This document shows positions 1,495 through 41,842 of a stretch of DNA of 64,000 bases, piece after piece; position 1 is the stretch's first letter; each line of letters opens with the position of its first letter. The translations under genes and the position numbers were made by a program. The stretch is from Escherichia phage vB-Eco-KMB23, in sequence record OR525702.1; one strand, written 5' to 3'. The notes beneath the pieces were generated by a model that saw only the letters and a program-made list of their open reading frames with translations, did no database searches and was not told the DNA's origin.

Positions 1495-2349
1495 TCACAA
1501 TGAAGAAAATTCTTTAACTAAAGCCTGTAATGAAGCCTCTATTGGATATCCATTCTTAACTAACATTTTCCTAAACATCACATGTTTAGGACGATTATAT
1601 GATATCCACAATTCATACAATTTATCTTTATTATCCCAATGATAGCCTTTTCGTCGAGATGCTATATGAGCTTTTCTAATCTCCGGATTTTTCCAACTAG
1701 CAGCTACTGAATTTGATATAGCTATTTTATATTCAGGTTTTGATAAAGCAGCACGAACAGCCTTTTGGTGTTTAATTTTATTTTCTTCGTTATTAAACCA
1801 TTCCCTTGAAGCCATTGAAATTTTTTGTTTTGTTTTAAAATTATTTAATCTTTCTTTGTTATCTTTCCTATTTTTTGCTACTGAAAAATATTTTAATGCC
1901 CTTTCTCTAGCAGCATTTCTATTTTGCGGATTTGAATAATACTGTTGAAGCCTTTTTGATATTGTGTCACTTACATCTTGTTTTATAAAACTATATTCAG
2001 CAGCTATTAAATCAACTTCGGCTAAAGATAAATTTTTATATGTTTTTCCTGACATCATTCTATTTAAAGCATTTAGCATTTTTCCATTTTTACCTTTTGC
2101 TAATAAGAAATGTGCTTTAAAATGATTAAAATGACTTAAATTAACTAAATTCCATGTAGATTTTAAATATTCAGGAAATATTGATTTAGGAAGCACGTGG
2201 TGTGCTTCCGTTTTACCTGGAGTTTTAACAGTTGAATTCATAGAAATAAAATTAATGTAAGACTTGGCGTCTTCTTCACTCAACGCTAATTTTTCAACTA
2301 ATTCCTTTATTAAAAATTCATCATTAATGTCAAGTTTAAAATTCTTCAC
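1495..2349 (-). CDS. HNH-family homing endonuclease (free-standing, mob-like), 284 aa, GTG start
   Basis: HNH-like motif AHHVLPKSIFPE...NLVNLSHFNHFKAHF; C-terminal repeated basic WxNPE(I)RKA-type motifs typical of endonuclease DNA-binding modules; sits between genes 47 and 46. Confidence 0.7.
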   Translation of the reverse strand: MKNFKLDINDEFLIKELVEKLALSEEDAKSYINFISMNSTVKTPGKTEAHHVLPKSIFPEYLKSTWNLVNLSHFNHFKAHFLLAKGKNGKMLNALNRMMSGKTYKNLSLAEVDLIAAEYSFIKQDVSDTISKRLQQYYSNPQNRNAARERALKYFSVAKNRKDNKERLNNFKTKQKISMASREWFNNEENKIKHQKAVRAALSKPEYKIAISNSVAASWKNPEIRKAHIASRRKGYHWDNKDKLYELWISYNRPKHVMFRKMLVKNGYPIEASLQALVKEFSSL

Positions 2350-2536
2350 AAAAGATTCCTTTTAATGTATCTTTTAGACCATTCTATCATATCATCATAA
2401 TCTAAAAAGTATTCATCAAATTCAGCCATGCAAACAACACCTTGTGCTGCTTTTGATGTGATATAAATTATTCCAACATATCTAGAATCTTCTTCGGTGT
2501 AATCAATATTTGCTATGAATTCATCATTAATGTCAA
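2315..2536. repeat. Direct repeat pair (19-bp perfect core TTGACATTAATGATGAATT on minus strand) at 2315-2333 and 2518-2536
   Basis: Both copies encode (F/L)DINDEF at the starts of two adjacent ORFs, the HNH endonuclease and the upstream small ORF. Confidence 0.75.
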
Positions 2537-2609
2537 ATGTCGAAAACTTCACAGTATGCATCCTTAATACAAGATACAGCCATATCTCGTAATGATTTAG
2601 GTGTGTCAT
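2346..2609 (-). CDS. Hypothetical small protein (probable true start near 2561, MHTVKFSTFDINDEF)
   Basis: ORF track; overlaps neighbouring ORF in another frame so the N-terminal extension is doubtful. Confidence 0.45.
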   Translation of the reverse strand: MTHLNHYEIWLYLVLRMHTVKFSTFDINDEFIANIDYTEEDSRYVGIIYITSKAAQGVVCMAEFDEYFLDYDDMIEWSKRYIKRNLL

Positions 2610-2796
2610 TATCTAAAATGTTGAAGTTAAAAGATACAGCCCAGTCAGTGCAGACTGTAACCTTTTTAATACAATTATCTTCAACCTCTAGTGGTTCAAA
2701 CCAATATTCAATAATTTCTTTGTGCCCAATATCATCTTTTACTTCGCATTCAAAATGCTGACTCATCATAACATTTTTAAATTCATCAAAAGTCAT
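2533..2796 (-). CDS. Hypothetical protein, 87 aa
   Basis: ORF track; start overlaps gene 47 stop by 4 nt (typical phage coupling). Confidence 0.5.
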   Translation of the reverse strand: MTFDEFKNVMMSQHFECEVKDDIGHKEIIEYWFEPLEVEDNCIKKVTVCTDWAVSFNFNILDNDTPKSLRDMAVSCIKDAYCEVFDI

Positions 2797-5434: not shown

Positions 5435-5641
5435 TCATAACTGCCACCATTTTTTGACTTGATAAGAATCAACCCACACTTTCATATTAGGGTCTGCTCT
5501 TACAATAGGAGGATTAACTTCTTTAATTGAACTATCATGGTATTCTTTTTCAGAAATTTTCACACAAAGATGACCATTCAAAGATTCAGTAAATCCTGCA
5601 TTAATTTTAAGACGCTTGAATTTTACGTGTGTAAGCATCAA
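5435..5641 (-). CDS. Hypothetical small protein
   Basis: ORF track only; overlaps next ORF. Confidence 0.4.
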   Translation of the reverse strand: MMLTHVKFKRLKINAGFTESLNGHLCVKISEKEYHDSSIKEVNPPIVRADPNMKVWVDSYQVKKWWQL

Positions 5642-6763: not shown

Positions 6764-7033
6764 TTATCTAAGTAAACAGTATGCTTGGAACACTTTCTCC
6801 ATCATCTTTTTAAATTCATGAATATCTATATAATGACTAGTTAAATCAGCATGATATAAAAAGTCTAAAAACTTTTCATGTGTGCTAACATATTCACTTT
6901 CATTTAATTCAGAAACATGACTTTCCCAATATCCAACACCAGTCTTATTTGGGAAAAATGAAATTTTCATGTATTGGTCAACATAGAAAATGCCATAATT
7001 TTCAATAGTAATAGAAATATTAATAAATTTCAT
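6764..7033 (-). CDS. Hypothetical protein, 89 aa
   Basis: ORF track. Confidence 0.5.
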   Translation of the reverse strand: MKFINISITIENYGIFYVDQYMKISFFPNKTGVGYWESHVSELNESEYVSTHEKFLDFLYHADLTSHYIDIHEFKKMMEKVFQAYCLLR

Positions 7034-7245
7034 ACATTCATCAACTTAGCCGCTTCAAGAGCTGCATCTAGTGAATCAAATTGGTCAACATATTCAATCA
7101 ATTCGCCATAATTGGCATATAACCACCATTGGCTAAATTCATACTCAAGGATGAATCCGTTTCCTTCAATTTGAGTTAAACCAATGCCATTTGTATTTAC
7201 TTCATATCCAGCAAGACGCAAATCGTTAATAAGAGCTTCGTTCAT
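7030..7245 (-). CDS. Hypothetical protein, 71 aa
   Basis: ORF track; 4-nt overlaps with neighbours. Confidence 0.5.
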   Translation of the reverse strand: MNEALINDLRLAGYEVNTNGIGLTQIEGNGFILEYEFSQWWLYANYGELIEYVDQFDSLDAALEAAKLMNV

Positions 7246-7247
7246 AA

Positions 7248-7574
7248 TTATACCTTAGTAATTTTCAGGTCTGCAAATTTTTTCTTGCGTTGATTTTTCA
7301 TACGACGAATAGTTTTATCGGAAATTTCATGCTTTTGATAAGCTTTAGATTCTACACCAAAAGCTTTAACATCAAATTCTGACAAGATATATTGAACCAA
7401 CAATTCACGGACAGTATTGCGTCCAATCTTCTGATCATTCTGTTTCATCGTCTGATGAAGCTCTTTTTCCCATTTATCCAAAATTTGAGGAGTTACAATA
7501 TCGCCTTTTTCTAGCAAAGAAACTACTTTATCATATGCGTAAGAATTAATGACGTTTTTAATTTGAATAGTCAT
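7248..7574 (-). CDS. Hypothetical protein, 108 aa
   Basis: ORF track. Confidence 0.55.
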   Translation of the reverse strand: MTIQIKNVINSYAYDKVVSLLEKGDIVTPQILDKWEKELHQTMKQNDQKIGRNTVRELLVQYILSEFDVKAFGVESKAYQKHEISDKTIRRMKNQRKKKFADLKITKV

Positions 7575-7606
7575 ACATTATCCTCAATTACGTTAAAATT
7601 TTATTA

Positions 7607-7627
7607 TCCAAAAAGGGCCGAAGCCCT
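7607..7627 (-). terminator. Rho-independent terminator
   Basis: Minus strand AAGGGCTTCGGCCCTT followed by TTTTT; immediately after stop of 7627..7827. Confidence 0.65.
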
Positions 7628-7827
7628 TAGCTAAACTTTTTGGCACCCTTCCAGCCTTCATACATCATTGCGGCTGATATTAATATTGCTCCTGAGCAAC
7701 TTGAATATTTGTGATTCCAAAACCAGTTTAGAAAAACTTCATCATCAATACCTTGGGCTATCATATTTTCAAAGAACTGACGACGAGATTCGGCAATTCG
7801 TTGTGATAATTTAGATTCAGGATTCAT
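7627..7827 (-). CDS. Hypothetical protein, 66 aa
   Basis: ORF track; followed by terminator hairpin. Confidence 0.45.
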   Translation of the reverse strand: MNPESKLSQRIAESRRQFFENMIAQGIDDEVFLNWFWNHKYSSCSGAILISAAMMYEGWKGAKKFS

Positions 7828-8043
7828 TTAAATTTTCCAGTTACCGTTTTCATCAATAAATTTAATCCAGTCATTTACTGACCACTTAGTTGTATCACCT
7901 TTTGGAGTAACATTTAAAGTGTATAACCCCTGCTTAAAAAGCATTCGTTTGATATTCATAATTTCCTCAGCTGTAACGATAACACTCGTTTGATTTACGT
8001 TTAGCAACTCGTTGAGAAGTATTATAATCAAAATCATCGTCAA
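7828..8043 (-). CDS. Hypothetical small protein (start uncertain)
   Basis: ORF track; overlaps 7967..8305 by 77 nt in another frame. Confidence 0.35.
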   Translation of the reverse strand: MTMILIIILLNELLNVNQTSVIVTAEEIMNIKRMLFKQGLYTLNVTPKGDTTKWSVNDWIKFIDENGNWKI

Positions 8044-8305
8044 TGTAAACTGATTTTTTCAACTTTCTTACTTCACCACGTAATTGGCGATTTAGCTCAT
8101 CTTTAACTTCTGAATCAATGCCTTTCATTCTACGCCATTTATCTGAGCGAAAAATGTTTTCAACCATATCTTTATGACTTACACCATCAGGAGCTTTACG
8201 CTTTCCGAAATAGTCATAATCACGTACTTTTAAATCTTTACGACGATACGTTTTACCCATGGAGTTTAATTTCCTTAGCAACTGAACTAAATACAGCACG
8301 ATCAC
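7967..8305 (-). CDS. Hypothetical basic protein (likely start at MGKTYRRK)
   Basis: ORF track; downstream of an early promoter-like element at 8461-8490. Confidence 0.45.
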   Translation of the reverse strand: MIVLYLVQLLRKLNSMGKTYRRKDLKVRDYDYFGKRKAPDGVSHKDMVENIFRSDKWRRMKGIDSEVKDELNRQLRGEVRKLKKSVYIDDDFDYNTSQRVAKRKSNECYRYS

Positions 8306-8460
8306 AAATCATCTGTTTATTCCATTTAAGTACAGTATAATGAACATCTAGATCATCTACTGCTGTAACAATAACAATATGTCCGTTAACACGATAATAC
8401 TGATCCTTTTTAATCTCTTTATCAACCATATCAAATCCTCAAAGGCAATTCATATGTTAA

Positions 8461-8490
8461 TAATACCACGGTTTGAACTTGTTGTAAACA
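8461..8490 (-). promoter_or_regulatory. T4-type early promoter (sigma70-like)
   Basis: Minus strand: GTTTAC -35, 18-nt spacer, TATTAT -10, with upstream AT-rich element ttcacaaagtt. Confidence 0.5.
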
Positions 8491-8560
8491 ACTTTGTGAA
8501 AAATATTTTAGGGAATGACAAGAAGGGAACGATAGCTTAGAATGGTAATATACAGAATGC

Positions 8561-8584
8561 GAGAAAGAAAGGCCCAGAGGGCCC
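8561..8584 (-). terminator. Candidate terminator after nrdH
   Basis: Minus strand GGGCCCTCTGGGCC then TTTCTTTCTC. Confidence 0.5.
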
Positions 8585-8587
8585 GTC

Positions 8588-8896
8588 TTAATCTTCTATG
8601 ATATCTCTATCATATCCAAGTGAAATGAGAGTTTCTTTGAAGTGTTTAATGTTCTTTTGTCTAGAATCATTAATGAAAATGACCGGATAACGAATGTTAA
8701 GAGATGTGAATCCAGCGCGTTTAGCAAGAGATACAATCAGTGGACGATCATACTCAATCTTACCATTATTTGTAAGAACTTTATAGAAAGTAAAAGGAGC
8801 ATTGAGCTCCTTTAGAAGTTTTGTAACTGATTGACATCCAGGACAACGACCTACTTCATCTGGAATTCCATAGACTTCAATCTTATTTTGTTTCAC
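8588..8896 (-). CDS. nrdH: Glutaredoxin-like protein
   Basis: 102 aa with CPGC redox motif; positioned next to nrdG/nrdD. Confidence 0.7.
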   Translation of the reverse strand: MKQNKIEVYGIPDEVGRCPGCQSVTKLLKELNAPFTFYKVLTNNGKIEYDRPLIVSLAKRAGFTSLNIRYPVIFINDSRQKNIKHFKETLISLGYDRDIIED

Positions 8897-8898
8897 AA

Positions 8899-9111
8899 CT
8901 ATTCCTTACTAAGAGCAGCATTCAGCTTGTTAGTAATTTTATCCAGACGCTTATTGAACTCACTAGAAGATAAGCCTTTTTCTGGAGAAATTAAGCTAAT
9001 CACGAAAAATATAGCAATAAAAGGAATAAGAAAAATAGCACCAACTGCCATAAACAAAAAGAACGTTACAGTTGTAAGAAAATCAGCTAAACCTTTACGA
9101 AATTTATACAT
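8899..9111 (-). CDS. Small membrane protein, 70 aa
   Basis: Hydrophobic segment FLFMAVGAIFLIPFIAIFFVISLI. Confidence 0.5.
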   Translation of the reverse strand: MYKFRKGLADFLTTVTFFLFMAVGAIFLIPFIAIFFVISLISPEKGLSSSEFNKRLDKITNKLNAALSKE

Positions 9112-9226
9112 ATTTTACCCTTAATTGATTAACCAAGCATTGATAAGCACTAAACTATATTGCGAATAAAATTCTGGACCAAAATGAAAAATCATATCAT
9201 TTATAGTATCCATAATGTAATTCAAT

Positions 9227-9697
9227 TTAATCATGTGTCCACACCCCATCGGTATTTGACCAAAGTCGCTGATTATCTGATCCTCGCCACAGCTTTTTGG
9301 TCGGAAGATTTTTCTCATACTTCCCATCAATAATAACATCAACATATTTAAGCATTTCTAGTTGTTTAATATCTTCAAACTTATATCCTGTCCACAACCA
9401 AATGCTTTTATTGGGATAAAGATTTTTAATAGTTTGAACCACAGAGTGAATCACGTCTCTGTTATCAGGATAGAGAGGGTCACCTCCGGTTATAGTCAAT
9501 CCTTCTATATAATCATTATTCAAACATTCAATTAATTGTTCTAGTGTTTCACCAGTGAATGGAATACCATTTCTAGCATTCCATGTTGATTTATTATAAC
9601 ACCCTTCACATTTATGCAAACAACCTGTAACGAAAAGAACGACCCTGCAACCAGGGCCATTCACAAAATCACAAGGATAAAATCTATCATAATTCAT
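9227..9697 (-). CDS. nrdG: Anaerobic ribonucleotide reductase activating protein (radical SAM)
   Basis: 156 aa; Cys cluster GCLHKCEGCYN; overlaps nrdD stop by 4 nt. Confidence 0.85.
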   Translation of the reverse strand: MNYDRFYPCDFVNGPGCRVVLFVTGCLHKCEGCYNKSTWNARNGIPFTGETLEQLIECLNNDYIEGLTITGGDPLYPDNRDVIHSVVQTIKNLYPNKSIWLWTGYKFEDIKQLEMLKYVDVIIDGKYEKNLPTKKLWRGSDNQRLWSNTDGVWTHD

Positions 9698-11511
9698 TGG
9701 TGTTTAACCCTATGCATGATTTCTTTATTTTTACCGAGATTAAATCCGCGCTCGTTCGGATTTCCCAAATAACCACATGTTCTTCTTATTGTATTCATCT
9801 TTTTAGGATCAGTTTCTCCACAAATAGAACAAACAAATCCGTTTTCAGTAGGAGTCATTTCATGGGTACTTCCGCATGTAAAACACTTATCTACTGGCAT
9901 ATTAACACCAAAATAATCTAAATGCTGTGCAGCATAATCCCATACGGCCTCAAGGCCTTTCAAGTTATTTTTCATATCAGGAAGTTCAACATAAGAAATG
10001 TGACCACCTGTCGCAATGAAATGATATGGCGCTTCACGAGAAATCTTTTCAAACGGAGTAACATTTTCTTCTACTGAAACGTGGAAACTGTTAGTGTACC
10101 AGCCTTTATCAGTAACATCCTTTACACTTCCATATTTTTCTGTATCGAGTTTACAGAAGCGATAACAAAGGTTTTCAGCAGGAGTAGAATACAAGCTAAA
10201 AGCAAATCCGGTTCTTTCAGTCCACTGTTTAAGACGAGCATTCATTTTAGTTAAAATTTCTTGCCCAATATCACGACCGACAAGAATATTCAATTCGTGA
10301 ATACCAATGTATCCTAAAGACACTGAACTTCTACCGTTTTTAAATAACTCAATTATGTCGTCATCAGGTTTAAGACGAACCCCGAATGCACCTTCTTGGT
10401 AAAGAATAGGAGCAACAGTCGCTTTAACTCCTTTTAAGGAACTAATTCTACACATCAAAGCTTCAAAACATAAATCCATTCGCTCATTGAACAATTCAGT
10501 AAATTTCTGTTCATTGAACTGTGTTCCAATATAAGAATCTAATGCGATACGAGGAAGATTCAGTGTTACAACACCGAGATTATTACGTCCATCAAGAATT
10601 TCATTGCCAGTCGAATCTTTCCATACACTCAAGAAACTGCGGCAACCCATTGGAGAAACAGGAATAGATGAACCAGTGATAGCTTTATTGTTCTTAGCTG
10701 AAATAATATCAGGATACATCCTTTTGCTTGCACACTCTAGAGCAAGCTGCTTAATATCATAGTTCGGATCATCTTTATAAAGATTAACACCTTCTTCGAC
10801 GAACATAACAAGCTTAGGGAAAATAGGAGTTATCCCATCACGACCAAGACCTTTAATACGATTTTTCAGAATTGCTTTCTGAATCATTCGTTCAGTCCAG
10901 TCAGTTCCCGTACCAAATGTAATTGTTACAAAAGGCGTTTGTCCGTTTGAACTAAAGAGAGTATTTACTTCATATTCATAAGCTTGGAATGCATCGTATA
11001 CGTCTTTTTCTGTTTTAGATTGAGCATAATTCAACGCATCAGCGATTTGCCATTTTTCTGCATCCTCAATATGTTTTGCATATGTGCGTTTAACATAAGG
11101 AGAAAGTACTTTATCTACATTCGCAAAAGTCGTTCCGCCATATTGATGGGAAGCAACCTGTGCAGTAATTTGTGCCATAATTGCAGTAGCAACACCGATT
11201 GATTTAGGAGTTTCAATCTGCGCATTACCAAGCTTAAATCCGTTCTCAAGCATTCCTTTTAAATCTACTAAACAACAATTAGTAAATGGAAGAGCAGGGG
11301 AATAATCAATATCATGGAAATGAATAATTCCGCTTTCATGCGCTTTCATAATAAAAGACGGGACCATATTTTTGGCAATGTGTTTAGACACAATACCAGC
11401 CATAAGGTCCCGTTGAGTTGGAAAAACACGAGAATCTTTATTAGCATTCTCGTTCAAAAGGTCTTTATTAGTTTTATGAATCAATCCTTCAATTTCTTTT
11501 TCAATTGTCAT
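9694..11511 (-). CDS. nrdD: Anaerobic ribonucleoside-triphosphate reductase, intronless
   Basis: 605 aa continuous ORF; C-terminal Cys cluster and glycyl-radical tail RRTCGYLG. Confidence 0.9.
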   Translation of the reverse strand: MTIEKEIEGLIHKTNKDLLNENANKDSRVFPTQRDLMAGIVSKHIAKNMVPSFIMKAHESGIIHFHDIDYSPALPFTNCCLVDLKGMLENGFKLGNAQIETPKSIGVATAIMAQITAQVASHQYGGTTFANVDKVLSPYVKRTYAKHIEDAEKWQIADALNYAQSKTEKDVYDAFQAYEYEVNTLFSSNGQTPFVTITFGTGTDWTERMIQKAILKNRIKGLGRDGITPIFPKLVMFVEEGVNLYKDDPNYDIKQLALECASKRMYPDIISAKNNKAITGSSIPVSPMGCRSFLSVWKDSTGNEILDGRNNLGVVTLNLPRIALDSYIGTQFNEQKFTELFNERMDLCFEALMCRISSLKGVKATVAPILYQEGAFGVRLKPDDDIIELFKNGRSSVSLGYIGIHELNILVGRDIGQEILTKMNARLKQWTERTGFAFSLYSTPAENLCYRFCKLDTEKYGSVKDVTDKGWYTNSFHVSVEENVTPFEKISREAPYHFIATGGHISYVELPDMKNNLKGLEAVWDYAAQHLDYFGVNMPVDKCFTCGSTHEMTPTENGFVCSICGETDPKKMNTIRRTCGYLGNPNERGFNLGKNKEIMHRVKHQ

Positions 11512-11981
11512 TTTAAACTCTTTCTAAGCTGCTTCTTAAATGAAGCTATTAACTGTGTTTTAGTGTCAGATTCATTATATTCAAATCCTCTTTGAAGCAT
11601 CTCAGCCATCATTTCCTCTTTTCCTAAACGAGAAAATTCCTTTGATTTATCTCCAATAAAGTTAGGGTGAATATTATTTTGGGTGTAATCAGATTTTAAA
11701 TAAGTAAGTAAATTTTCTAACCATTCAAGATAATCAACACCTTGTCCCTTTAAGCCAGAACGATTAAATTTATGCTTCATTTGACCTTCTGCGGCATTGC
11801 AGAGATTACAAAGCAATCCACGTACCTTTCCTGCTTTTGGTCCATTTAATTCATGGTCATGGTCGAGGTGATTAGCTTGAACATCAGGATTTAGTTCTCG
11901 TTGGCAAATTAAGCATTTACCATTTTGTGCATCATAAAATTTCTGTTTTTCTTCTTTGTATAATTTGCCAGTCAATAACAT
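11508..11981 (-). CDS. 49: Endonuclease VII (Holliday junction resolvase)
   Basis: 157 aa; MLLTGKLYKEEKQKFYDAQNGKCLICQRELN...HLDHDHELNG matches T4 gp49. Confidence 0.9.
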   Translation of the reverse strand: MLLTGKLYKEEKQKFYDAQNGKCLICQRELNPDVQANHLDHDHELNGPKAGKVRGLLCNLCNAAEGQMKHKFNRSGLKGQGVDYLEWLENLLTYLKSDYTQNNIHPNFIGDKSKEFSRLGKEEMMAEMLQRGFEYNESDTKTQLIASFKKQLRKSLK

Positions 11982-12022
11982 AATAAACCCTTACCTTAAA
12001 TAGATAAGGGTATTTATTATTT

Positions 12023-12508
12023 TCAAGTATTGTAAAACATTTGATTCAATCGCTTATATTGCCGAATCTTTTGGTCAGAAAAAGAAATTTGGGTTTCAAG
12101 CCATTCAATATATTCTGCCGCAGCTTGCATCAAATTTCCTTCATAGCCATCGTTATTTTCTTGTGCAGCTAATTTAGCTAATGCGTATGAAATACGTTCA
12201 CCTTGAAAATCGGCTTTAGGCTTCTGAACAACTTGATTAGTTCGCTCTACAACTTCTTCAATTTCGCCATTTTCAATGGATTCAGTATTCCACAAGCACC
12301 AATACGTAATTGGCTTATCATAGATGTTAATAATCTTTCCGTCGGAAAGTTCAATTTCAATAATTCCAGTATCAGGCTCTATATCATCTTCACATTCTTT
12401 TGCAAGTTCACGAACTTTAAAGACAGTACCTGCACTAAGTTCCGGCCAGTAATTACACAGCCCTTTATCAGCACGATTAATTCTAAACCACTTATCTACT
12501 GCAATCAT
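12023..12508 (-). CDS. pin: Candidate protease inhibitor Pin (161 aa)
   Basis: Length and position between 49 and nrdC consistent with T4 pin; sequence identity not verified from memory. Confidence 0.5.
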   Translation of the reverse strand: MIAVDKWFRINRADKGLCNYWPELSAGTVFKVRELAKECEDDIEPDTGIIEIELSDGKIINIYDKPITYWCLWNTESIENGEIEEVVERTNQVVQKPKADFQGERISYALAKLAAQENNDGYEGNLMQAAAEYIEWLETQISFSDQKIRQYKRLNQMFYNT

Positions 12509-12632
12509 ACCCCCATCTCCATATCAATTAAGTCATTTATCGTCGGTTCATTATATACTGTTTCTTCATCAGTGTAAACCGGTTCTTCCGGCTCTGGCTC
12601 TACTGTTTCCCATCTAGCCGCCCACCAAGGTT

Positions 12633-12953
12633 TTATAGCGTAATCCATTCTCGTACTGTCTGAGTTACTACACGTTCACGGGGCTCGACTAGTTCAACAG
12701 TCGGAACTGCATAATACCAGTCAGAATGGTAAGAACCTGAGCGAGATTCATTTACAGACACATGAACGTTATGTTTTGGACTAAAATAAACACACTGACG
12801 ATATTGGCATTTACCATCTTGCACCCAGTCTTCTATTTCGATAGGTTTAAGATAATCCGAAAAATCGAAATCATAATTTTCTGAAAATGCATCATGGTCT
12901 TCGATGATTTCGCTCAGAACTGCATCAACATCTAATTTATTTTCAATATTCAT
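12633..12953 (-). CDS. Hypothetical protein, 106 aa
   Basis: ORF track. Confidence 0.5.
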   Translation of the reverse strand: MNIENKLDVDAVLSEIIEDHDAFSENYDFDFSDYLKPIEIEDWVQDGKCQYRQCVYFSPKHNVHVSVNESRSGSYHSDWYYAVPTVELVEPRERVVTQTVREWITL

Positions 12954-12963
12954 TTTTCACCAA

Positions 12964-13173
12964 TTAATTTCGCAATTTATTAAGTTCTTCATAATCAATC
13001 CAGGATTCTAGTCCTGATGGCAAATCAGATTCAATTTCCCAAAGAAGCTCTTCAATTTTCTGAAGACGATCTAATTCTTCGGCTGGAATAGTAACCATTG
13101 ACGGAGTTCTTGATACACTAATATCGTAGATCATATTTACCCCAGTTTGACCATGCAATCGCCATATTTCCAT
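12964..13173 (-). CDS. Hypothetical protein, 69 aa
   Basis: ORF track. Confidence 0.4.
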   Translation of the reverse strand: MEIWRLHGQTGVNMIYDISVSRTPSMVTIPAEELDRLQKIEELLWEIESDLPSGLESWIDYEELNKLRN

Positions 13174-13352
13174 TTAGAAATAGACTTTTCACCGTTAGAA
13201 TAATAAACTTCGAGTTTAGCACGATTATTTTTAATTTGAATAACCTTTGCTGTCATCAAAGTTCCATACCCGTAATAAACTGCAACCTCATCACCTACAT
13301 ATACCGCGCTTCCGCGGTAGTCATGGATATAATCAGTTCCTTCGAGCATCAT
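13137..13352 (-). CDS. Hypothetical protein, 71 aa
   Basis: ORF track; 4-nt overlap with nrdC stop. Confidence 0.45.
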   Translation of the reverse strand: MMLEGTDYIHDYRGSAVYVGDEVAVYYGYGTLMTAKVIQIKNNRAKLEVYYSNGEKSISKWKYGDCMVKLG

Positions 13353-13612
13353 TTAAAGTATTCCCGCAATTGGTCAAATCCACCAATATGACTTCCATCA
13401 GGAGCAAATACTTGTGGCATTGTCAAACCAATTTGAGTATCACGACCTAGTTTCGTCAGAAGCTCAGCGATTTTCTCATCATCAAAAACACCTTTTTCCG
13501 GCATAATGTTGATAAATTCAAACGGCTGTTTCTTCACGGTCAAAAGACGTTTTGCATTATCACAATACACACATTTGTGGATGTTGCTATCATAACCATA
13601 TACTTTAAACAT
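13349..13612 (-). CDS. nrdC: Thioredoxin/glutaredoxin
   Basis: 87 aa; MFKVYGYDSNIHKCVYCDNAKRLL with CVYC active site, matching T4 thioredoxin. Confidence 0.9.
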   Translation of the reverse strand: MFKVYGYDSNIHKCVYCDNAKRLLTVKKQPFEFINIMPEKGVFDDEKIAELLTKLGRDTQIGLTMPQVFAPDGSHIGGFDQLREYFK

Positions 13613-13613
13613 A

Positions 13614-13856
13614 TTATTCCTTAATTCCTAGTACTTGTTTAAAAGTCTCGTCGTAATCAAGACTTTGGCCCGTTTGTTCTTTATGTTTGTATATAATATC
13701 ACTTACTTCTGATAGCATATTTTTATATGAACGAGTTAAAGCAGATTTAAGCACGCTATATCTATCAGGAAATTTACCGTGTTCATTATAATACGCTATT
13801 GCTAATTCACGGACTGCCTTTTCAGCAGTCTCCATATATTCTTTACGCTTTGTCAT
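13614..13856 (-). CDS. Hypothetical protein (start adjusted to [13 protein letters not shown])
   Basis: ORF track gives 13614..13991, but that extension overlaps the upstream gene by 134 nt; an internal Met gives a tidy junction. Confidence 0.45.
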
Positions 13857-13857
13857 T

Positions 13858-14247
13858 TTAATCCAAAATATTATTAGGCATTGGTTGAACACTCGCAAGT
13901 TCTTTAAAGAACTCAGTAGAGTCAGGTAATTTAACCATTTCAGGAGCATGCTTACTAAATTTATGTTTGCAATGACGGCATTTATATTCAAGTTCCGGTT
14001 TACGCCAGTTAATCAATTGAACTTGTTCAGTACCGCATTCAGGACAATTAGGAACGTTTTTAGAAGCCCTTTCGCGACGTTCAACCATAACCATAATAGC
14101 ATCCCAGGCTGGAGGTTTAAAATCTAAATCGTCGCAGCCGTGAATCTTTCCACGCATTTCCATATCATCTTCCTCACCAGCCATAATAATTTTAATTAAA
14201 CTGGAATTACTTGAAGCTGCAATGTCTTCTAATAAACGCTTTTTCAT
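13858..14247 (-). CDS. Hypothetical zinc-ribbon protein, 129 aa
   Basis: CPECG...CRHCKHKF Cys4 motif. Confidence 0.5.
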
Positions 14248-33202: not shown

Positions 33203-33576
33203 CGTGATTCCTTAACAAATTTCATAATTTCATCAAATTCATGTGCAGCAAGTTTAAGCTGATGTTCCTTTTTAATCTTTTTACACTGGGCTTTCCAATC
33301 ACGTACACGTTTACGATAGTGTCTTCCTTGATACCAGTATCCCACCCAATTTACAGGTACTAATAAAAATGGAACTATCATTGGAAGAATTAGTGTTGAC
33401 GCAAATATTACATTAGATTCAATATCAGTCATAACATCTATAACTATTCCAACCCCCAGTAGAATTACAAATGATACAGCTATTACAGGACCTATTAATA
33501 CATCAGTAGAAATTAGCTGGCGCTTTAATTCATACTTCAACGGTTTACTTGGAAGATACATTGATGGCTTTGACAT
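33184..33576 (-). CDS. Small 2-TM membrane protein, paralog of previous two
   Basis: Hydrophobic helices; C-terminal segment QCKKIKKEH...MKFVKESRCK. Confidence 0.55.
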   Translation of the reverse strand: MSKPSMYLPSKPLKYELKRQLISTDVLIGPVIAVSFVILLGVGIVIDVMTDIESNVIFASTLILPMIVPFLLVPVNWVGYWYQGRHYRKRVRDWKAQCKKIKKEHQLKLAAHEFDEIMKFVKESRCKSQN

Positions 33577-34836: not shown

Positions 34837-35370
34837 TTATATCATGCTATTTAAGAGATGTAAACTATTTTTAATTTTACAAATTCGTTCAGCTTCTTCA
34901 ACAGCGGCAGTGATAATGCTTTTAGCTATAGGAGTACTAATACTAGTAGCTTTTACACTTAACACGATTTCTTTATCTTTACCAGGCCAACCCCACGATT
35001 TTTCACCATGAGTGCCTTTAATTACAGCAGACACCTCAAGTGAGCATCCATTATCACATGTTTTTACATTAACAACCCAAGTGTCACTTTTCTCAACCGG
35101 TTTATCCCAGTAAATATTAAGAATACGTGGGACATCAAATTTAGCAGGGCAAATCTTAACAGTAAGACCTTCGCTTTCTAGCCAATTAATAAGAGGGCGT
35201 TCATACATGCGGCGATGTGGGCTTTGAACTCGACAAGCTTTGTACCCATTGCTTGCGGCTTCACTAAGCTCTTCTAATACCTGCTTTTGCATTATTGATA
35301 AGATACCATCAAAAGATTTTTCGGAAGTTTCATTCAGTTCGGTATAAAGAGACATAACAGTTTTCCTCAA
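34837..35370 (-). CDS. Hypothetical protein, 177 aa
   Basis: ORF track. Confidence 0.55.
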   Translation of the reverse strand: MRKTVMSLYTELNETSEKSFDGILSIMQKQVLEELSEAASNGYKACRVQSPHRRMYERPLINWLESEGLTVKICPAKFDVPRILNIYWDKPVEKSDTWVVNVKTCDNGCSLEVSAVIKGTHGEKSWGWPGKDKEIVLSVKATSISTPIAKSIITAAVEEAERICKIKNSLHLLNSMI

Positions 35371-35411
35371 ATTATAGGCTCATAATATCTCAATCATGAG
35401 CCTATGTAAAC

Positions 35412-35687
35412 TTATTTCATATTATTGAAATATTCTTCTGCAATTTCGTCGTTATCATGATAAACTTTAGAAGACAGTTTAACATAACCTTCAGCAGTGA
35501 ACATGTTAATCACAACCTTTACAGTATACCACTGACCATCTTCATTACCCATTACTGCGTAAGTTTCAAACATCGGATGATCAGGACCGATAACTTTAAT
35601 ATCATTCACTGTACGACCAAAATCTTCTGAAACACATTTCATAAAGAAGTTGAACAGTTCGCCGTAATTATCCATTTCATTCTCCAA
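35412..35687 (-). CDS. Hypothetical protein, 91 aa
   Basis: ORF track; early promoter immediately upstream. Confidence 0.5.
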   Translation of the reverse strand: MENEMDNYGELFNFFMKCVSEDFGRTVNDIKVIGPDHPMFETYAVMGNEDGQWYTVKVVINMFTAEGYVKLSSKVYHDNDEIAEEYFNNMK

Positions 35688-38836: not shown

Positions 38837-39121
38837 TTACCATTTATGATACGTATTTACGATGCATTCAAGACTTAAAGGATTCTTGAAAATATCATAT
38901 TCAAGAGGACCTTTTTCTGTTTCAATAAAGAAATCAAAATTTACTGTATTAAATTTACGGTCTTCCTTCACTAATTTAACCTGAGAAGATGAACGGTCAA
39001 TGTAAACCTTTTCAACTTCAAAACATGTTAAAATGCCATAATCATCAATCAAGGCTTTAGCTGCTTCTTGATCATATTTATATCCATTTTCAATGGACGA
39101 TACTTTAGCATAAAGAATCAT
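38837..39121 (-). CDS. Hypothetical protein, 94 aa
   Basis: ORF track. Confidence 0.5.
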   Translation of the reverse strand: MILYAKVSSIENGYKYDQEAAKALIDDYGILTCFEVEKVYIDRSSSQVKLVKEDRKFNTVNFDFFIETEKGPLEYDIFKNPLSLECIVNTYHKW

Positions 39122-41117: not shown

Positions 41118-41842
41118 TATAGTACCTTTAGTGTATTTTTAATTTTAGAAAAAAGTTCTTCAAGAGAACCATCGTTTGTAATTACTAAATCACCATCACG
41201 AATTGGCAATCCAGCTTCTGTAATATGTGTATCATTGGATTTTTGACCAGGACGAACTACATGAATTACTGTAGCACCCATCGCCCTAGCCGCATCCATT
41301 TCATGATCTTGACGAGTATCAGGAACGATATAATAATCATAACCTGAGTTAAATTTATCAAGATAATCTAAAGCAAATAATTTTACCCAATACATGCGGT
41401 CGAAGTTATTAACAATCAAATCCGTACCTAGGGCTTGCATCAGACGACGGACTGACCATTGATCTTCAATATTATTTATAACGTCAGCAATCTTATTAAA
41501 TGCTACGAAAGTAACTGATTCTTTTCCTTCGTCATCAAAAACAAACACACCTTTAATTGGGCTTTTACTATTAAGATAGCAAAATGCTTGTTCCATAATC
41601 GTGATTACTTCTAATTTAGTCAGATTTAAATTAGTCTCACGATCATAGTCAATTCCTTCAAACTCTTTACGAGTTAAGCAAGGATAGTCAGTGTTTGCTG
41701 CAAATACTCCCCATGCATAAGCCAATGCATCCTTAATAGGACCAGCAAGTTGGTATTTAACTGCAGAATAATTATTCATGATAAAATCTGCAGTAGTATC
41801 TTTTCCGCTACGCTTTACACCACTTAAAAAGATTAGTTTCAT
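41117..41842 (-). CDS. 1: Deoxynucleoside monophosphate kinase
   Basis: 241 aa; P-loop MKLIFLSGVKRSGKDTTADFI. Confidence 0.9.

Follow-up and report, generated by a model that had tools for sequence, protein, structure and literature searches.

Results

The window, by which we mean the whole stretch of 64,000 nucleotides that was analysed, contains the early-gene region of a Tequatrovirus (T4-like phage). Its coding strand is the minus strand, and the region matches Tequatrovirus genomes at 97% identity. A preliminary description had drawn attention to three pairs of neighbouring small ORFs on this strand: 7828..8043 (TTG start, 71 aa) with 7967..8305 (GTG, 112 aa), 12964..13173 (ATG, 69 aa) with 13137..13352 (ATG, 71 aa), and 2346..2609 (ATG, 87 aa) with 2533..2796 (ATG, 87 aa). 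All six ORFs are present at these coordinates, and the members of each pair do overlap in different frames (by 77, 37 and 77 nt, respectively), but they are the longest ORFs only and not genes. At the starts that we found to be supported, the first pair (homologues of T4 genes 55.5 and 55.4) is separated by a gap of 7 nt, the second (here called ORFs A and B) by a gap of 2 nt, and the third (homologues of genes 46.2 and 46.1) overlaps by 20 nt.

Both ORFs of the first pair, 7967..8305 and 7828..8043, are over-extended at the 5' end. The gene 55.5 homologue (97 aa, 7967..8260, minus strand) starts at ATG 8260, not at GTG 8305. In this short form it is covered completely by the Pfam family DUF5499 (1-97/97, 217.1 bits; the Pfam gathering cut-off for T4 small early-gene families is 27 bits). 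The gene is annotated as 294 nt in T4 and its relatives, and ATGGGTAAA at the 55.5 start is kept down to 44% identity despite differing upstream contexts. Its Shine-Dalgarno (SD) sequence, AAGGA at 8276..8272, gives a pairing dG of -6.0 for ATG 8260 vs -3.3 for GTG 8305. The spacing of 11 nt between this SD and the ATG is longer than usual, and for this reason the start call weighs homology above the SD. Upstream lies a 55.6-like gene (8253..8429, minus strand), the stop of which overlaps the 55.5 start by 8 nt (ATGGGTAA); the same 8-nt overlap is annotated identically in T4 (41464..41471).

The gene 55.4 homologue (43 aa, 7828..7959, minus strand) starts at ATG 7959, not at TTG 8043. Again the short form is matched from end to end by a Pfam family (DUF5484, 1-43/43, 119.9 bits), the T4 annotation gives the gene as 132 nt, and SD pairing separates the two codons (-6.1 for ATG 7959 vs +0.4 for TTG 8043). 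As read from the sequence, the 55.5 stop TGA (7969..7967) overlaps the 55.4 SD GAGG (7968..7965), so that the two motifs together occupy 7965..7969 on the minus strand, 7 nt before the ATG. Relatives keep this 55.5/55.4 junction as TGAggaaa(t/a/c)tATGAAT. An open alternative frame 5' of 55.4 spans 99 nt in 17 of the 18 relatives with a called downstream start. Selection for this open frame was considered and ruled out by the codon-position pattern, with 22 of the 34 variable columns of the 55.4 extension falling on 55.5 codon position 3, and by a recoding null (P = 0.60). The 99-nt open frame is a by-product of 55.5 conservation. A stop codon interrupts the 55.4 extension in the relative L012.

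In the third pair, the gene 46.2 homologue (87 aa, 2533..2796, minus strand; T4 annotation 35168..35431) is matched by Pfam T4_Y03C at 1-84/85 (146.6 bits). The gene 46.1 homologue (68 aa, 2346..2552, minus strand) starts at GTG 2552, not at ATG 2609. Pfam DUF5487 covers its short form at 1-66/66 (165.9 bits), the T4 annotation gives 207 nt, and an AAGGA (2565..2561) lies 8 nt 5' of the GTG (dG -5.9 vs +0.4 for ATG 2609). The homologous start codon is ATG in the relative L058 and in the Mosigvirus Shf125875; the Mosigvirus homologue has its annotated ATG start exactly at the position of the window GTG, and the far ATG of 46.1 is absent in L058. The 3' end of 46.2 and the 5' end of 46.1 share a genuine out-of-frame overlap of 20 nt (2533..2552, minus strand), without a single variable column among 8 unique sequences. 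Elsewhere this overlap measures 14-17 nt (L058) and 14 nt (Shf125875). In the 46.1 extension, five of the six variable columns fall on 46.2 codon position 3. A Mosigvirus tblastn alignment seemed to carry the homology of 46.1 on into the extension by 10 residues; we rejected it as evidence for a longer gene, as the aligned stretch proved to be the conserved DNA that encodes the 46.2 C-terminus, translated in the other frame. In this phage, unlike T4, 46.1 is followed by an additional HNH endonuclease gene.

ORF A (71 aa, 13137..13352, minus strand) is a DUF7205 member with the N-terminal domain only: it matches positions 7-72/128 of the Pfam profile and 1-70/122 of phrog_2112. Its start codon and the nrdC stop overlap as ATGA, and it is annotated as a CDS of 216 nt in NR1 and of 213 nt in Sf23. 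ORF B (56 aa, 12964..13134, minus strand), an LPSGLESW module, starts at ATG 13134, not at ATG 13173 (SD dG -6.0 vs -2.8), and is spanned by phrog_3402 at 1-56/56. A GGGG run (13140..13143, minus strand), composed of the last Gly codon of A and one preceding G, serves as SD of B at a distance of 5 nt from the ATG. Homologues of B in Klebsiella phages (Jiaodavirus) use the homologous ATG as their start (MSYDI...), preceded by GAGGA, and in these phages A and B are separated by an 18-nt intergenic spacer without a G-run. Throughout the B extension the peptide read in frame A does not vary, every substitution being synonymous in A; two of the substitutions create frame-B stop codons that interrupt the extension, in the relatives L031 and L033. 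At the position of ATG 13173 we found GTG in L029, L030, L032 and NR1, and the codon is missing in L031 and L033. Neither A nor B had a significant match in sequence searches of solved structures, and ORF B showed weak similarity to T7 gp5.9 (20.4 bits, under the 24.5 cut-off).

The A/B junction is polymorphic in deposited sequences. The G4 form occurs in 267 records and a G5 form in 9 records; G5 makes A and B a single ORF in 8 distinct phages among those deposited, and in UGKSEcP2 the fused A-B is annotated as a CDS of 129 aa. The B module is also found joined to other N-terminal domains in other T4-like phages. Natural fusion in a minority of phages implies that the fused product is at least viable, and the alternation between fused and separate forms can be seen as a natural experiment which suggests that the two products may work together.

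Scoring of ribosome-binding sites put the best SD pairing at the internal codon in each pair, at about -6 kcal/mol (-5.9 to -6.1 kcal/mol for the internal starts vs +0.4 to -3.3 for the longest-ORF starts). The curated annotations of T4, Sf23 and NR1 give starts identical to those called here, and the synteny and strand of 55.5, 55.4, 46.1 and 46.2 (the 47/46 and nrdH/55 intervals) are the same in these three phages. The expectation of the preliminary description that the true starts are internal is thus borne out for all three pairs by SD scores, starts in relatives and annotation. Its more specific expectation of internal ATGs holds for ATG 7959 and ATG 13134 but not for 46.1, which starts at GTG 2552. 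In a T4 proteomics supplement, 55.4, 55.5 and 46.2 are assigned in their annotated forms to classes of protein timing; this is a record of detection only, and 46.1 is given no protein class. A literature search for T4 ribosome-profiling, N-terminomics or direct N-terminus or initiation-site data on these genes returned none.

With longest-ORF calling across the whole window, apparent overlaps of at least 30 nt occur in 10 of 109 adjacent gene pairs, and seven of these ten shrink to 8 nt or less at the best-SD start. Once starts are corrected, junction lengths across the window peak at 4, 1 and 8 nt. A null model in which the upstream gene was recoded synonymously (5000 trials) gave far-start extensions of at least the observed length in 55%, 58% and 78% of trials for the three pairs. 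The overlap pattern is no stronger than expected by chance.

Frameshift-dependent expression, which had been proposed as the other possible meaning of the long overlaps, gained no support: a slippery heptamer and downstream RNA structure were both missing, and the extensions are not constrained as coding sequence. A motif scan of the three overlaps, which also took in tetramers and codons for +1 re-pairing, detected neither X_XXY_YYZ heptamers nor homopolymers of at least 5 nt. The steps from 55.5 to 55.4 and from 46.2 to 46.1 are +1 relationships with just ordinary AAA_N/TTT_N codons. From A to B the relationship is -1, and the sole Z_ZZN tetramer in the overlap is G_GGG, directly before the TAA stop. 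Predicted folding in the 87 nt 3' of the upstream-gene stops was no better than in shuffled sequences (z = -0.77 for A/B, -0.98 and +1.20 for the others). Purifying selection on the trans-frame ORF was not detected; variable columns concentrate on the third codon position of the upstream gene, and stops interrupt the trans-frame extensions in L012, L031 and L033. Scan and folding together left only G_GGG at A/B as a candidate among the three overlaps, and this one is disfavoured by published data. In systematic measurements in E. coli, G_GG.G was barely or not at all shift-prone, and the authors explained its signal above background by initiation further downstream, with the G-run serving as SD (PMC4066793).

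Discussion

Taken together, we are highly confident that the long overlaps are a start-calling artefact of densely packed, ordinary T4-like early genes and that no frameshifting is involved. Overlaps of 37-77 nt appear because the downstream frames happen to be open 5' of the real start and happen to contain an ATG, GTG or TTG there. Internal starts with good ribosome-binding sites, which the preliminary description had named as the finding that would speak against frameshifting, are present in every case. The genes of the region lie on polycistronic messages read from the minus strand. The analysis places their real starts at ATG 8260 (55.5), ATG 7959 (55.4), ATG 13134 (B) and GTG 2552 (46.1), and every one of these has its SD inside the 3' end of the gene before it. 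The downstream cistrons would be translated by normal SD-directed initiation, and translational coupling probably helps: ribosomes that terminate at the start or close to it may unmask the SD and reinitiate. Termination-reinitiation junctions in bacterial and phage operons have overlaps of up to about 20-32 nt, with the SD in the upstream CDS. The junctions described here have this geometry (+8, -7, -2 and +20 nt, the SD within the upstream CDS, dG about -6 kcal/mol), and it is from this geometry and general knowledge that we infer coupling in this phage.

A different reading concerns A and B only. If a low-level -1 frameshift took place at CUG GGG UAA (13145..13137), an A-B fusion would be made beside separate A and B: tRNA-Gly would slip one base back on G_GGG at the stop and continue with GUA AAU AUG into B. 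B does lie in the -1 frame relative to A with G_GGG right before the TAA stop, the slip would yield exactly the protein of the G5 variant (...KLGVNMIYD...) known from 8 deposited phages, and the B module also occurs fused to other N-terminal domains. Against this stand the E. coli measurements in which G_GG.G shifted barely or not at all (PMC4066793), the lack of a heptamer and of significant downstream structure (z = -0.77), the conserved ATG and SD that B has of its own, the Jiaodavirus spacer of 18 nt without a G-run, and the G4 form in 267 records. We therefore regard such a frameshift as very improbable. In a broader version, the GGGG run (13143..13140) might allow low-frequency joining of A and B, either because the ribosome slips by -1 at G_GGG-UAA or because the polymerase slips; this too is a long shot. 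If it were true, the phage would make a two-module protein both in separate pieces and as a fusion, the fusion being the one that the G5 phages encode directly, and its B module is one that is fused recurrently to different partners in other T4-like phages.

It might also be argued that TTG 8043, ATG 13173 and ATG 2609 are used besides the internal starts, giving N-terminally extended isoforms and true overlaps of 37-77 nt. The extensions are open in the window and in most close relatives, and T4 gene 49, in the same region, has in-frame dual starts (two CDSs with a common end). Moreover, 55.4 aligns at profile positions 32-74 of phrog_24953 (length 74), so that the over-long 55.4 was probably used in some deposited annotations and in one PHROG family too. 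However, the far starts have no usable SD (dG +0.4, -2.8 and +0.4), and they and their extensions are not maintained: ATG 13173 is replaced by GTG or, in the two relatives with stops in the extension, absent, the 55.4 extension contains a stop in L012, and L058 lacks the far ATG of 46.1. Substitutions show constraint in the frame of the upstream gene only, and the curated Pfam families reach no further than the short N-termini. Extended isoforms are thus highly unlikely, and for none of the three pairs is there evidence that the upstream start is used.

The least probable reading, that A and B are one gene split by a 1-nt deletion or a homopolymer sequencing error with B as a pseudogene fragment, can point to the single 129-aa ORF that one added G restores and to the similarity with the N- and C-termini of SH7 gp78 noted by the Sf23 annotators, but we reject it, as the separate form is the majority (267 vs 9 records), diverged Jiaodavirus phages have separate A and B with an 18-nt spacer and an SD for B, B fits the stand-alone 56-position family phrog_3402 end to end, and the fused protein fills just positions 7-72 of the 128-position DUF7205 profile, for which reason we consider the A-B fusion derived and not ancestral.

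Hence we return to ordinary early genes with internal starts. The overlap finding is an ordinary one, and its real parts are already covered by the T4 reference annotation: the short stop-start junctions and the 20-nt 46.2/46.1 overlap with its GTG start are known from T4. Our result is mainly negative: no recoding signal is hidden in the window, and gene calls should not take over the long overlaps, which are only apparent. The G4/G5 polymorphism at the A/B junction was noticed on the side and is of modest interest.

When compared with known systems, the three pairs resemble programmed -1 frameshifting (dnaX, IS911/IS3, the phage tail-chaperone G/GT) in that two ORFs seem to overlap in different frames and, for A/B, in a downstream frame at -1 and a Z_ZZN tetramer before the stop. 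They differ from these systems in lacking both an X_XXY_YYZ heptamer and a stimulatory structure, in that the trans-frame extension is unconstrained, and in that each downstream gene begins at a conserved start of its own. T4 gene 49, which encodes a long and a short endonuclease VII, is a documented case from the same region in which one frame uses more than one start codon; its products, unlike the three pairs here, are in the same frame and involve no overlap with another gene. Coupled cistrons of the ATGA/TAATG type have in common with the junctions described here that the genes lie on the same strand with stop and start a few nucleotides apart or overlapping. The closest counterpart is T4 itself (NC_000866: 41039..41646 and 34981..35431), which has the same 55.6-55.5-55.4 and 46.2-46.1 genes with a few percent sequence divergence, and carries gene 49.3 where this phage carries ORFs A and B. 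Gene lengths are equal in the two phages (294 nt for 55.5, 132 nt for 55.4, 207 nt for 46.1 and 264 nt for 46.2), and so are the junctions, with the 8-nt overlap, the 7-nt gap and the 20-nt overlap with a GTG start.

Apparent overlaps and the choice of start codons

All six ORFs of the preliminary description lie on the minus strand at exactly the positions it gave, and the three pairs do overlap in different frames, by 77 nt (7967..8043), 37 nt (13137..13173) and 77 nt (2533..2609). These ORFs are mechanical longest ORFs, opened at the first ATG, GTG or TTG past a stop, and in three of the six the far-upstream start is weak or not an ATG (TTG 8043, GTG 8305 and ATG 2609). The pattern is very probably explained by an artefact of start calling over normal T4-like genes, and the recurrent 37-77-nt overlaps do not survive as a real feature, the one between 46.2 and 46.1 really being 20 nt long. 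In ribosome binding site scoring, internal starts pair at -5.9 to -6.1 kcal/mol and far starts at +0.4 to -3.3. The proposal that the true starts are internal holds for all three pairs, with ATGs for 55.5 (8260), 55.4 (7959) and ORF B (13134) and a GTG (2552) in place of an ATG for 46.1.

In a simple gene set covering the whole window, longest-ORF calling produced apparent overlaps of at least 30 nt in 10 of 109 adjacent pairs; seven of these ten shrink to 8 nt or less once the starts with the best Shine-Dalgarno sequence (SD) are chosen. Three moderate overlaps are left: 46.2/46.1 (20 nt), a-gt.4/a-gt.3 (32 nt, 5607..5638, minus strand, identical to the T4 annotation at 39079..39110) and a pair near a nudix hydrolase gene (32 nt, 33545..33576, minus strand). 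No real overlap in the window is longer than the latter two, which also exceed every corrected overlap of the three pairs studied. The relative PinkRuby has an annotated 32-nt overlap between two genes in a region that was mapped as approximately collinear with that around 33545..33576. Once corrected, junctions are most often 4, 1 or 8 nt long, and peaks at such lengths are the usual signature of coupled cistrons. Under synonymous recoding, far-start extensions as long as those observed at the focal junctions arise with P = 0.55-0.78; the overlap pattern is no more than chance.

Genomic context

The window is AT-rich (GC 32-41%), and the GC skew is strongly negative across its first ~43 kb, consistent with minus-strand genes. 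Positions 7000-14000 match many Tequatrovirus (T4-like) genomes over the full length at ~97% identity. The annotated records of T4, Sf23 and vB_Eco_NR1 allowed the minus-strand early-gene block to be named as nrdC - (A, B) - 49.2 - 49.1 - pin - 49 - nrdD - nrdG - 55.8 - nrdH - 55.6 - 55.5 - 55.4 - 55.3 ... 55 - a-gt - 47 - 46.2 - 46.1 - 46. Here nrdD (9694..11511, minus strand) is one uninterrupted ORF of 605 aa that abuts nrdG directly, whereas in T4 the I-TevII group I intron interrupts nrdD and the homing endonuclease mobC separates it from nrdG; the window phage carries neither mobile element.

An extra gene for an HNH homing endonuclease of 284 aa (1495..2349, minus strand) lies between 46.1 and 46 and explains ~870 nt that are not present in T4, Sf23 and NR1. 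Its product matches phrog_655 (E 8e-45), and a Pfam search gave no match. The gene occupies what was the GTGA start of gp46 together with six initial codons (VKNFKL); next comes DINDEF, a repeat of the 46.1 N-terminus, and gp46 itself restarts at ATG ~1477, reading MKSFKLNRVKYKNIMSVGQN. Bounded by junctions at ~2349 and ~1477, the gene has the look of a free-standing homing endonuclease inserted in the typical way, its target flanks duplicated.

Genes 55.6, 55.5 and 55.4

The start of 55.5, ATG 8260, is embedded in the end of 55.6 (...CAT GGG TAA) with an 8-nt overlap (ATGGGTAA), and its stop, TGA 7969..7967, overlaps the GAGG SD of 55.4, which begins at ATG 7959, 7 nt past that stop (all on the minus strand). 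Predicted pairing with the 16S rRNA 3' end is -6.0 kcal/mol for ATG 8260 versus -3.3 for GTG 8305, and -6.1 for ATG 7959 versus +0.4 for TTG 8043. Since the 55.5 SD sits 11 nt from its ATG in the window, homology outweighs the SD as an argument for this start. The short proteins match Pfam families end to end (55.5, DUF5499, 1-97 of 97; 55.4, DUF5484, 1-43 of 43), and T4, Sf23 and NR1 annotate the genes at 294 and 132 nt, as in the window. Across 21 IMG/VR relatives the 55.5 start ATGGGTAAA is retained even where protein identity drops to 44% and the upstream context is quite different. Every relative of at least 72% protein identity (L008-L024, L028) also retains the junction TGAggaaa(t/a/c)tATGAAT, which is not present in the three loci of 44% identity, themselves without 55.4.

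Of the 18 relatives with a downstream start called, 17 have an open frame of 99 nt ahead of the 55.4 ATG. Third codon positions of 55.5 hold 22 of the 34 variable columns of the overlap (18 unique sequences); these are second positions of the alternative frame, where any change alters the amino acid, and the alternative-frame peptide ahead of 55.4 is freely variable, with a stop in relative L012. When 55.5 was recoded synonymously with phage codon usage to see how long the alternative frame stays open, 60% of trials kept it open over 99 nt or more, and 55% gave a far start at least as distant as the observed one. Selection for an open frame upstream of 55.4 was considered and rejected: by the codon-position pattern and the recoding null, its openness merely follows from the protein that 55.5 encodes.

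One relative, L020 (IMGVR_UViG_2706795356_000001), has no 55.4; there the same TGAggaaaatATGAAT junction links 55.5 with a 55.3-like gene (MNPQSLLSQRIAE...), an arrangement suggesting that 55.4 was deleted via recombination between shared ATGAAT gene starts. In the family model phrog_24953 (profile length 74), the 43-aa 55.4 (7828..7959, minus strand) aligns at positions 32-74, which suggests that some deposited genomes annotate an over-extended 55.4 (about 71-74 aa) and that this error was carried into the model.

Genes 46.2 and 46.1

For 46.1, GTG 2552 (minus strand) is the best start, 8 nt past AAGGA (-5.9 kcal/mol); ATG 2609 (+0.4) and ATG 2561 (-3.3, without spacer) were rejected. T4 annotation gives 46.1 the same 207 nt and a 20-nt overlap on 46.2 (35168..35187). 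DUF5487 matches the 68-aa 46.1 over 1-66 of 66, and T4_Y03C matches 46.2 over 1-84 of 85. A diverged relative, L058, has ATG at the homologous codon (MKTFEFNLDDEF vs VKFSTFDINDEF; overlap 14-17 nt), and Mosigvirus Shf125875 has an annotated ATG exactly where the window has GTG relative to 46.2 (...GAGGAtgcgtataATG vs ...AAGGAtgcatactGTG), with an overlap of 14 nt; in Aeromonas phage PS49 the homologue begins at an ATGA junction with the upstream gene. Searching by tblastn with the long 87-aa ORF gave ~38%-identity matches aligned from residue 10. As evidence against GTG 2552 these were discarded, because the upstream likeness is that of the conserved 46.2 C-terminus (CI[K/E]DAY) in the other frame. 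In the 57-nt extension, five of six variable columns fall on 46.2 third positions, and the true 20-nt overlap shows no variation (8 unique sequences). The short overlap is real and conserved and, like the junctions of 55.6, 55.5 and 55.4, already known from T4 annotation; no real overlap of 77 nt exists between these genes.

ORFs A and B

T4 carries gene 49.3 where the window has A and B, so these are not T4 genes. ORF A (13137..13352, minus strand) starts at an ATGA overlapping the nrdC stop and ends ...AAA CTG GGG TAA; B (12964..13134, minus strand) starts at ATG 13134, two bases past A, with GGGG(T) as SD 5 nt upstream and a pairing of -6.0 kcal/mol versus -2.8 for ATG 13173. B has 171 nt in the NR1 and Sf23 annotations and matches phrog_3402 end to end (1-56 of 56). 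In Mineola and KP182, Klebsiella phages of Jiaodavirus, the end of A reads ...KWKYGECMVKL(stop), an 18-nt spacer with GAGGA follows, and B has the homologous start codon (MSYDI... vs MIYDI... in the window). The frame-A peptide KWKYGDCMVKLG shows no variation among close relatives; all real substitutions in the 39-nt extension of B are synonymous in frame A and on first positions of frame B. Through them the far ATG becomes GTG, and stops arise in L031 (TGA, from GGC to GGT) and L033 (TAA, from GTC to GTT).

The Sf23 annotators had remarked that two ORFs, A and B, resemble the N- and C-termini of one SH7 protein, and we examined frameshifting at this junction for that reason. Relative to A, the frame of B is -1; if tRNA-Gly slipped by -1 on G_GGG at the TAA stop, the product would be a fusion that deposited DNA also encodes directly: UGKSEcP2 has a single annotated 129-aa CDS in place of A and B, and its alignment with the separate form differs only in GGGGG for GGGG, giving ...KLGVNMIYD.... 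Seed-restricted megablast queries of deposited records for this polymorphism (13140..13143, minus strand) counted five Gs in nine records, i.e. eight distinct phages from several laboratories (including SH7, UGKSEcP1/2, Killian and F26), and four Gs in 267, T2 among them. Programmed frameshifting is nevertheless most improbable here, given that G_GG.G was not frameshift-prone in an E. coli study of all Z_ZZN tetramers (PMC4066793), that the overlap holds no slippery heptamer and that downstream structure is not significant (z = -0.77). In the same study the G_GG.G signal above background was put down to initiation a few nt further on, with the G-run serving as SD (PMC4066793), and the sequence suggests just this role for GGGG ahead of B.

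The fused gene was also considered as the ancestral state; of the 128 positions of the DUF7205 profile, the fused protein still fills no more than 7-72, and the fusion is thus derived. In most T4-like phages the B module (consensus …EELLWEIE..LPSGLESWID.EEL.KLRG; phrog_3402 label 'antitoxin from a toxin-antitoxin system') stands alone as a gene of about 50-60 aa. The five-G variants join it to ORF A, and in L040 (152 aa) its partner is a T4-49.3-like domain; in L035/L036 its frame is open for 222 nt upstream as far as an ATG, and B may there be fused to a third N-terminal domain. Repeated fusion of B to its upstream neighbour hints at a functional partnership. Among solved structures no relative of B was found, and its resemblance to T7 gp5.9 is below threshold only.

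Translation of the small genes

Start positions, SDs inside the 3' end of the upstream gene, conservation across genera and unconstrained extensions are matters of observation. By what is generally known of translation in bacteria and T4, every small gene would be translated off a polycistronic early mRNA via ordinary SD-directed initiation, probably helped by translational coupling, in which ribosomes ending the upstream gene leave the SD accessible and possibly reinitiate on the next gene. At the 20-nt overlap of 46.2 and 46.1, coupling would involve short backward repositioning. A T4 omics supplement classes 55.4, 55.5, 55.6 and 46.2, in their annotated short forms, by protein-level timing, and lists 46.1 with an RNA class and without a protein class; our literature search found no initiation-site or N-terminal data.

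Comparison with known systems

Programmed frameshifting is recognized by a slippery motif, a stimulator and a conserved trans-frame ORF. Each was looked for in the window pairs and none was found, which leaves the frameshift-dependent expression that had been raised for these overlaps without support. The genes are members of the T4 families 55.5, 55.4, 46.1 and 46.2, and their junctions agree with the T4 reference annotation.
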